Shown in pieces: positions 13,790-22,210 of a stretch of DNA of 64,000 nucleotides. Under the pieces are notes generated by a model that saw only the letters and a list, made by a program, of their open reading frames with translations, did no database searches and was not told the DNA's origin. Numbering within the stretch: the first letter of the stretch is position 1; each line of letters opens with the position of its first letter. The position numbers and the translations under genes were made by a program. The stretch lies in the NCBI GenBank assembly GCA_000165345.1, contig CM000436.1, positions 352,001 to 416,000 on the forward strand. Reading direction: 5' to 3'.

Positions 13790-16700
13790 TTACTGAGTGT
13801 AATTACCATAATTATAATCCAATCCTCTCATATCAGAAATATGATTCCCACCTGGATGCATCTGCCCCTGTTGATTTGGTTGATCCTGCATTCCTATTCC
13901 ACCTCTATATCCCATTCCTTGCACTCCACCCCCCATACTCATCTGATTATGGCCCGAAATGTGATTATACTGGCCACCATAATATTGGCTACCAACACTA
14001 TTACTAACCTCTCCATTATAGCCATTATTCATCATTCCTCCTTTTTGCCCTTGAAAATTTTGCACAATATAACTCGGAAGCCCCGCCGGCGCCATTTCTC
14101 CTGGCGCCGATGTGTGATGGTATTGATCATGATGATTATTATCAACAAGAGTTGGATTTCTTCTTATATTTGTTGTTTGAATCCTTCCTGTTAAATTTCC
14201 TCCTTGTAAATTTCCATCTGGTCCATTTAGCCCAGTTTGTACAGCTCCTGTTCCTGTTGTCTCAATAAGACCATTATTACCTCCATTAATAATATGGTTA
14301 GATCGAATATTAACGTTATTTGAATTGTAATGTAAAACATTTTGATTTTGGGAGTATCTTTGTTGTTGATGCTGATATTGATTTTGATTGTGTTGATTGT
14401 GTTGATTTTGTTGTATTTGGTTGTAAAATTGTTGTTGTTGTTGTTGTTGATGTTGTTGATGTTGTTGTTGTTGTTGCTGTTGCTGATGTTGTTGATGCTT
14501 TTGGTATTGAGTATGTTGTTGCTGTTGTTTTGAGTATTGGTACTGTTGGCTGTGAACGTTAGAAGAAGAAGAAGAAGATGGGTGGGCATTATTAGCTACC
14601 ACTAGACTTCTATTTCCCATTTCAAAATTATTATTATTTCCGGAATAAAGATGTTGTGAATTCCCTAGGTTATTGCCATGGACATTAGAACTTCCTATAG
14701 ATGCTCCCATTGCTCCTTCTCCATTGCCTCCAAAGTTACTAAGTTCTTGATTTTTGTTATAGCTAGAATTCATCATCATTTCATTGGTATTGTTTTGTTG
14801 GTATTGCCTACTTTGATGGCTTGAAAGTTGAAAATTATTACCTTGGGAAACATGAGAAGAGTTATTTTGGGTATACATTTGACGATATTGTTGTTGAGGA
14901 TGATTTTGGTTTTGAACACGTTGCTGAATTAATTGACGTTGAAATTGAAGTTGTTGCTGCTGCTGTTGCTGTTGCTGTTGCTGTTGCTGTTGCTGTTGTT
15001 GCTGAAGTTGTTGATGTTGTTGTTGTTGTTGCTGATGATGAAGTTTTTGAACTGACTGGTGTTGTTGTTGATGATATAGTTGTTGTTGGTGTTGATGTTG
15101 TTGAAGTTGATTTTGACCATAATTTTGACGTTGGAATTGCTGTTGTTGTTGCTGGTTCTGGTGATGTTGGTGTTGCATTTGAGGCTGTATATGCTGAGAA
15201 CCAAATACTCGGTTGCTTTGTTGTCTTTGGTTGTAAAATTGTTGTTGTTGTTGATGTTGTTGTTGATGATGAAGTTGTTGTTGTTTTTGTTGTTGTTGAT
15301 TATGAAGTTGTTGCATTGACTGATGTTGTTGGAGCTGAATTAAATTTTTTTGGTGCTGTTGGTGCTGATTCTGTTGCATTTGCCCTCCTAAATTGGCAGA
15401 ACCACTGTTACTATTACTGTGACTTCCAATGTTATGGCTATTATTATTGCTACTATAAGAATAGGGAATTTGCTTTGCAGAAGGCATAGCAAGATAGTTA
15501 ATGTTATCATTAGGCAAATTATTGACCGAAATTTGACCAGTTGAATTACTCTTATAACTTTGTCCATTTCTAATTTGATTATGGCTTGTAGGAAAATTAA
15601 TCATTGAATTCACATTCTGGCTTTGATTGTTTACGTTTCTGGAGAAATTTGTATTGCTGCTCATTGCACTATTAGAATTGAATACCGAAGAAGAATGAGG
15701 AGAACTAGTTAAAGGCAAAGTTGATGTAGAAGGTGTTGGCAAATAGCTCATTTTACTGTTACCAGGATTCTCAAAGCCTAGCTGTTGCTGAAGTTGTTGA
15801 TGAAGTTGTTGCTGTTGCTGATGTTGTTGCTGTTGCTGATGTTGTTGCTGTTGTTGATGAAGTTGTTGTTGTTTCTGTTGTTGTCGTTGTTGATGAAGTT
15901 GCTGTTGTTGATGTTGATGCTGTTGTTGATGAAGTTGCTGTTGTTGTTGTTGTTGTTGTTGCTGCTGTTTCTGCTGTTGATGTTGCTGATGTTGTTGATT
16001 CATATTAGATCCAACTGCAACACCCATATTCAAATGACTTGTATTCTTGTTTGAATTGTTCACGGAATTAACCCCTCTTAACTGAGAAGAATCTAACAGT
16101 TGTTGTGAAGTATTAGGAGAGTGTAACTTTTGTAATTCTTCAAATGGAGAGTTAAATAGTCTTTCTAATATTATCGACAAAATTGACATATGAGACATAT
16201 TCTGTTGTATTAGAGATTTATAAATATGACTTGCCTTGCATCCATTAATCTCAATATCTTCAATAGACTTTACTGGAATATTTCTTACTGTTATATATAT
16301 ATCAACATAACTATGATCTTTAATACCTTCATCTTTATTGAAATTATTATTAAACTGACTATCAATTATTAGATTTGAGTTATTTATTACCTTTCCATTC
16401 CTATTATACTTCCATATCCTATATAATAATCCTCTTAAAAAGTAAGTCTTCTCTTCTTTTTCTATTGGAACTAATAAATCATCATATTGACAAATCAAAT
16501 CAATGCTTACTGGTAACTTTCCTTGTATTGATAATAATGGATATTTTAATAATACAGAAATATCACGTATTACCATTAAAGAAGAACATAAAGCTATTGT
16601 AATAATTCTAACCAATGTACGTGATTGACTTAAACTTCCAAAATGTTGTAAAGTCTGACCCAATATATCAAACTCACTTGATATTGGACTTGTAAACAGT

Positions 16701-22210: not shown

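Follow-up and report, generated by a model that had tools for sequence, protein, structure and literature searches.

A very large, probable MED14 Mediator subunit of Cryptosporidium parvum carries the TP14 typing microsatellite in its glutamine-rich tail

Introduction

MED14 is the scaffold subunit of Mediator, the RNA polymerase II coactivator, and apicomplexan versions of it were catalogued by Bourbon in 2008 (Nucleic Acids Res 36:3993; PMC2475620). That survey lists a Cryptosporidium parvum Med14 homologue whose "2806 residues" include a C-terminal extension of very large size, names the Plasmodium falciparum protein CG2 as its homologue and detects members of the Cdk8 module in no examined apicomplexan. 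In P. falciparum, co-immunoprecipitation recovers Med14 (PF3D7_0709300) together with Med31 and further subunits of the Head and Middle modules, and none of the conserved Tail subunits is detected computationally (PMC9088918). A separate literature concerns TP14, a microsatellite marker credited to Mallon et al. 2003 (PMC2684618), listed as a CAA repeat of XM627041 (XM_627041) on chromosome VIII (PMC4746124). Here we analyse a 64-kb stretch of C. parvum DNA (contig CM000436.1, positions 352,001 to 416,000; hereafter the window, with all coordinates given within it) and describe a gene on its minus strand, 13790..22210, which very probably encodes MED14 and whose coding sequence (CDS) contains TP14.

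Results

A single-exon gene with a MED14 N terminus

We consider it very probable that the locus is the single-exon C. parvum chromosome 8 gene for MED14; this grade applies to the whole explanation offered here (identity, change in tract length and presence of the extension), and what the extension does is graded on its own further below. The open reading frame (ORF) is uninterrupted on the minus strand from 22216 to 13790 in a program-made ORF list with translations, where its start codon is a TTG (L-K-M...). The first ATG lies 6 nt (two codons) downstream, at 22210, and all eight orthologues begin at this same methionine, with MRLTNEETEEFQKSF or MKLTKEE, so that the start proposed in a preliminary description of the window holds. 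From there to the TAA stop (13790–13792) the CDS comprises 8421 nt and 2806 codons and needs no intron. An open frame of 8.4 kb in DNA of ~28% G+C, with orthologues in seven other Cryptosporidium species (35–78% identity), is far beyond chance.

The same description had aligned the N terminus with MED14, which is borne out by the Pfam family Med14 (PF08638): the match scores 43.1 bits against a gathering cut-off of 25.6 (E = 4.1e-11), spans profile positions 2–187 of 191 and places the domain at residues 18–208 (21587..22159, minus strand). All eight orthologues carry PF08638 in precomputed annotation, and those of C. muris, C. andersoni and C. xiaoi are named Mediator subunit 14 in UniRef. 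Residues 1–250 have a ratio of nonsynonymous to synonymous substitution rates (dN/dS) of 0.035; this and all later dN/dS values were calculated by the Nei–Gojobori method between C. parvum and Cryptosporidium chipmunk genotype I. The predicted model of residues 1–625 (20336..22210, minus strand) consists of N-terminal helices followed by two helix/β-sheet modules like RM1 and RM2 of solved MED14, and its match to MED14 is specific, the next family lying >4 Z units behind. Residues 1–625 combine the sequence signature of Med14 with the fold of MED14. Judging by homology with MED14 in yeast and human, residues ~1–600 would join the Head and Middle modules of Mediator.

The CDS is identical at the DNA level in two further chromosome 8 sequences, those of C. 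parvum assemblies GCA_015245375.1 (CP044415.1) and GCA_031892065.1 (CP029787.1), the former being the long-read assembly of IOWA-ATCC (PMC12179316). The gene model of the 2004 era already had 2806 amino acids. These sequences give no sign of a collapse of the repeats during assembly, which the preliminary description had suspected.

The C. hominis TU502 protein annotated as 'CG2' (1392 amino acids; NW_667214.1, 5819–9997) is a shortened model of the same gene, whose final few residues (GGFLSDY) diverge from the C. parvum sequence. Its contig ends ~700 bp past residue 1392 and so offers no tail for comparison; the model is short because the old assembly is fragmented, and for no biological reason. 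A homologue search with residues 1394–2806, aimed at the C. hominis tail, was dominated by low-complexity candidates and yielded four orthologues, all already known.

A core region conserved within the genus

The rest of the conserved core, residues 626–2032 (16115..20335, minus strand), appears genus-specific at the sequence level. Beyond residue 625 we found no Pfam match, and an exhaustive hidden Markov model search with a profile of residues 1260–2032 against 1.84 billion representative proteins returned Cryptosporidium proteins only. Strong conservation is concentrated at ~1300–1600 and 1800–2032, and the stretch ~1850–1900, inside the searched region, is the best-conserved block outside the N terminus. 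This region of ~1400 residues is conserved within the genus, with at least its second half (1260–2032) having no homologue detectable elsewhere. It also accounts, together with the tail, for the size of the protein; the preliminary description had attributed this to the tail alone, and the non-repetitive core already reaches 2032 residues. The recognizable MED14 fold is followed by some 2180 of the 2806 residues, which sharpens the question of what replaces the Mediator Tail in apicomplexans.

A glutamine-rich tail of three repeat blocks

In an alignment of the eight orthologues, the conserved core ends at residue 2032, directly after the motif FEELQKLHSP, of which every species has a recognizable counterpart. 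What follows, residues 2033–2806 (13793..16114, minus strand), is a low-complexity tail of 774 residues, or 27.6% of the protein. Glutamine contributes 29.1%, asparagine 13.3%, serine 9.8%, glycine 7.6% and histidine 7.5%, together 67%; charged residues make up 6% of the tail versus 25% of the core, and hydrophobic residues 16% versus 34%. The tail is presumably disordered.

Three Q/H-rich blocks (residues 2065–2149, 2276–2435 and 2553–2623) alternate with S/N/G-rich islands, and the islands are conserved across species. Block 1 (15764..16018, minus strand) holds an 11-glutamine run, a pure (CAA)7 and an array reported by Tandem Repeats Finder (TRF) at 15783–15999; the matching tract in chipmunk genotype I has only ~12 residues. 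Block 2 (14906..15385, minus strand; TRF arrays at 14950–15103 and 15239–15331) contains the longest glutamine run, 18 residues (2403–2420, nt 14951–15004) encoded by interleaved CAG and CAA codons. Over the whole tail, glutamine is specified by 176 CAA and 52 CAG codons. The DNA repeats are imperfect (69–85% matches by TRF), the longest pure (CAA)n having 7 units. The window holds five pure trinucleotide runs with at least 6 units, and three of them fall within the MED14 gene; the Q-rich tract is locally unusual.

Several features of the tail had been anticipated in the preliminary description, which put it at about 900 residues, or the C-terminal third, and called it almost pure low complexity. 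A tail rich in Q, H, N and G is present, at the smaller extent given above; its 67% content of the five commonest residues and the conserved islands between its blocks do not fit the second label. The long CAA/CAG tracts are real as regards the 18-glutamine run, the underlying DNA being imperfect and free of pure CAA runs above 7 units. The term prion-like suits the composition and nothing beyond it: windows of 80 residues with at least 30 Q or N, a threshold that reportedly goes back to Michelitsch and Weissman 2000, extend almost continuously over residues 2011–2682, with a maximum of 57 of 80. A published survey predicts prion-like Q/N domains for 1.57% of the C. parvum proteome (~60 proteins) and for 10% of that of P. 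falciparum (PMC3654983).

Base composition jumps at 14001–16000 (G+C 0.36, AT skew -0.34, GC skew +0.31), which the minus-strand CAA/CAG tracts explain in full. The plus-strand ORFs at 13730–14194 (154 amino acids) and 14821–15489 (222 amino acids), both with TTG starts, are antisense by-products of (TTG)n and were rejected as genes.

The tail is read and constrained as protein

Comparison with chipmunk genotype I gives 70% identity in aligned tail columns versus 78% for the whole protein. C. parvum has 133 residues that chipmunk genotype I lacks, 102 of which are Q or H. The dN/dS rises from 0.20 in the core to 0.27 in the whole tail and 0.30–0.37 in its non-repeat islands. The frame stays continuous in every orthologue that reaches the tail, and the extreme C terminus, LDYNYGNYTQ (13793..13822, minus strand), is identical in chipmunk genotype I and has a related counterpart, DYSGYGNFTQ, in C. 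felis, indicating that translation spans the entire tail. By these comparisons the tail is translated and subject to purifying selection.

In every species the same core boundary is followed by a low-complexity tail, with length and flavour varying. C. parvum has the longest and most Q-rich among those compared (774 residues, 29% Q), followed in length by chipmunk genotype I (666 residues, 23% Q), C. xiaoi (650 residues, 24% N, with a poly-histidine run), C. felis (605 residues, 17% Q) and C. muris, C. andersoni and C. serpentis (410–437 residues, 20–22% Q). That of C. canis has 180 residues and 8% Q.

The distal block is the TP14 microsatellite

Q/H block 3 lies within the TP14 amplicon (residues 2550–2658; 14239..14562, minus strand). 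The forward primer F2 (CTAACGTTCACAGCCAACAGTACC) matches exactly at 14539–14562 and the reverse primer R2 (GTACAGCTCCTGTTCCTGTTG) exactly at 14239–14259, giving 324 bp (allele 1); these are the primers used for the chromosome VIII marker by PMC4746124. As the published primers match and the amplicon equals a published allele, the distal Q/H block is the TP14 microsatellite of multilocus typing. Its variable core reads (CAA)5 CAT (CAA)2 CAT (CAA)7. The outer, first-round amplicon of the nested PCR (14036..14721, minus strand) is likewise bounded by exact primer sites, at 14702–14721 and 14036–14055 (PMC4591062). An alternative reverse primer from the same source meets one indel and one substitution at its site, 14263–14284, and predicts 300–301 bp; the sequenced alleles there measure 301 and 310 bp, and the paper remarks that bases differ within one of the TP14 primer sites (PMC4591062).

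In Spanish calf isolates the alleles of 324, 333 and 342 bp account for 41%, 36% and 18% (PMC4746124), each being 9 bp, and hence three residues, longer than the one before. Between species the Q/H blocks lengthen or shorten by whole codons, and the TP14 block does so between isolates as well. Length polymorphism and a use in typing, proposed in the preliminary description as potential, are accordingly established fact, TP14 having been in use since 2003. Because TP14 lies in the MED14 CDS, each allele alters how long one Q/H tract of a central transcription factor is. Metagenome contigs were scanned with the TP14 forward primer for other alleles and gave no match, and MM18 and MM19, two other chromosome 8 markers, are absent from the 64-kb window.

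Weighing the identity of the protein and the role of its extension

Several observations weigh against the identification as MED14 with a conserved extension. The predicted N-terminal fold is of medium confidence (predicted local distance difference test, pLDDT, 61), and residues 62–156 fall below 50. Searching PDB sequences with Cryptosporidium profiles of the full length and of residues 1–625 (hmmsearch, E up to 1 or 10) matched no solved MED14 chain; phmmer with residues 1–1000 also found no MED14, returning low-complexity noise such as a TFIIA Q/H tract. Residues 1260–2032 gave neither a homologue outside the genus nor a usable model (an AlphaFold model had pLDDT 32 and was discarded). Membership of the Mediator complex has direct support for the P. 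falciparum homologue, and for the C. parvum protein would follow by homology. Lastly, the C. canis tail is short and Q-poor, so the genus as a whole does not depend on a long Q tract, provided that the C. canis gene model is complete. The negative PDB sequence searches reflect divergence, direct similarity not being a defining criterion of the MED14 family; in view of them, MED14 membership rests on the Pfam family model and the predicted fold. One could then suppose that the resemblance to MED14 stops at the N terminus and that the protein acts outside Mediator, given that only ~22% of it is tied to MED14, that solved MED14 sequences escape its profiles, that residues 1260–2032 are unique to the genus and that the Plasmodium homologue CG2 was first discussed with regard to chloroquine resistance. 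We judge this very improbable: the Pfam match extends over nearly all of the Med14 profile, the fold agrees specifically with MED14 and the P. falciparum homologue co-purifies with Mediator subunits. Less probable still is that the Q-rich region lies outside the MED14 protein, whether as an intron, as a gene of its own further downstream or as an artefact of annotating a repeat open by chance. A CAA repeat has no stop in any of the three sense frames, which makes an open frame weak evidence by itself, and the first model for C. hominis TU502 ends at residue 1392, although its contig runs out soon afterwards. Yet core passes into tail with no in-frame stop, the non-repetitive islands and the final 180 residues share the reading frame of the core, both are conserved as protein with mostly synonymous substitutions (dN/dS 0.27–0.37), and in seven species annotations made independently give core and tail as a single product. 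Conservation and the tail dN/dS of 0.27 rule out an intron or separate gene for practical purposes, in agreement with the preliminary description, which had placed the tail in the same gene.

For MED14 with a constrained extension, the remaining matter is what that extension does. As Tail subunits are undetectable in Plasmodium and the Cdk8 module in the examined apicomplexans, the extension may be an activator-facing surface. The genus-specific region and the Q-rich tail would engage activators on the DNA, ApiAP2 factors among them, by weak, multivalent interactions, in parallel to Q-rich MED15 elsewhere; this is speculative, and we regard it as possible rather than probable. A bolder form, in which region and tail replace the missing Mediator Tail as a docking or condensate surface and the common TP14 alleles, possibly also the larger blocks, are functional variants, strikes us as unlikely. 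If it were true, TP14 alleles, 3 or 6 Q/H residues apart, would not be neutral marks, and a routinely genotyped locus would be a candidate modifier of parasite gene expression. The main rival on tail function regards the tail as tolerated low-complexity sequence that has no role itself, resized by CAA/CAG replication slippage while selection keeps the frame and avoids harmful aggregation. It agrees with tails that range from 180 to 774 residues and are rich in Q in C. parvum, C. felis and C. muris and rich in N in C. xiaoi, variation that together with the short C. canis tail favours tolerated slippage; with the confinement of nearly all length differences from chipmunk genotype I to Q/H runs; with field alleles 3 or 6 residues apart that coexist at high frequency; and with the most distant orthologues sharing tail composition only, no residues. 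We nevertheless hold it somewhat doubtful, since dN/dS of the tail and its non-repeat islands (0.27–0.37) is well below 1 and since every examined species retains some low-complexity tail after the same boundary. Conservation reaches C. felis for the extreme C terminus and for motifs such as YKSNSTGQISV and KQIP, with looser forms of these two motifs in C. canis, and the mixed CAA/CAG/CAT codons suggest old, stabilized tracts, not fresh slippage.

Neighbouring genes, a candidate promoter element and other repeats

MED14 is flanked upstream by a Spo11/TopoVIA gene (22697–23779, minus strand) and downstream, directly, by an ORF of 293 amino acids (12558–13439, minus strand), which has no Pfam match and whose position is kept in chipmunk genotype I (297 amino acids); next to this lies a calpain-like protease gene (9624–12335, plus strand). 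All three neighbours are shared by two C. parvum assemblies and chipmunk genotype I. In C. hominis the contig stops within MED14, and the Spo11 side alone is visible. Between the MED14 stop and the 293-residue ORF there is a non-coding heptanucleotide array, (CCTCTTT)x5.9, at 13569–13609 (97% matches).

A palindromic TGGCGCCA box at 22307..22314, 97–104 nt upstream of the MED14 ATG, is a candidate E2F-like promoter element. The window has 6 copies versus 0.02 expected (196–203, 22307–22314, 28793–28800, 44055–44062, 53730–53737 and 53748–53755), all between ORFs by the ORF map. An E2F-like motif has been reported upstream of Cryptosporidium genes, and the palindrome appears to resemble it. Two further arrays stand apart from MED14. 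An (AACAAG)x23 hexanucleotide array at 29787–29929, inside the ORF 29120–31654 (plus strand; 844 amino acids), encodes an (EQ)n / ELEQ acidic repeat and could be length-variable between isolates. A G+C-rich (AATTGTGGCGGGG)x3.2 array at 56026–56067 (96% matches), ~250 nt upstream of the ORF 56312–57580, may be a repeated promoter element.

Comparison with known systems

The gene, its identity as MED14, its unusual size and its polymorphic CAA tract are already in the literature and are known, not new. The C. parvum Med14 of Bourbon 2008 is the same protein, with 2806 residues in both cases; the passages of that survey consulted here do not describe what the tail is composed of or how its blocks are arranged, nor the middle region restricted to the genus or the connection with TP14 (PMC2475620). 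The TP14 of Mallon et al. 2003 (PMC4591062, PMC4746124, PMC2684618) agrees in primers, chromosome VIII, CAA repeat and the 324-bp product; it is placed here at MED14 residues 2550–2658 and includes, of the three Q/H blocks, the distal one alone. What we add is this placement, a description of the tail blocks and their constraint, and the finding that residues 1260–2032 have no detectable relatives outside Cryptosporidium. The typing and Mediator literatures, as surveyed, do not cite each other, and the position of TP14 in MED14 links them.

C. parvum MED14 is about twice as long as human MED14, which has ~1450 amino acids, and we know of no canonical MED14 with a Q-rich tail. With canonical MED14 (Saccharomyces cerevisiae Rgr1, Schizosaccharomyces pombe Med14, human and mouse; 5u0s, 7ui9, 6w1s, 8cen, 5n9j, 7emf) it shares the N-terminal domain and the fold of ~600 residues, at 8–12% sequence identity in structural alignments, and no similarity was detected after residue 625. 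P. falciparum CG2 (PfMed14, PF3D7_0709300) is also an apicomplexan Med14 with a very large extension, at 2729 amino acids in the 2008 survey (PMC2475620). It was not detected by the Cryptosporidium 1260–2032 profile, so the extensions are not demonstrably homologous. CG2, too, has polymorphic repeat tracts, which have been used as genetic markers.

MED15 (Gal11), the Q-rich Tail subunit of fungi, animals and plants, has no sequence or domain relation to C. parvum MED14, in which there is neither a KIX domain nor a Pfam Med15 match. Its long, length-variable poly-Q tracts reportedly mediate activator contacts (Cooper and Fassler 2019). The likeness of the C. parvum MED14 tail to MED15 is therefore one of composition, possibly of function, and not of membership.

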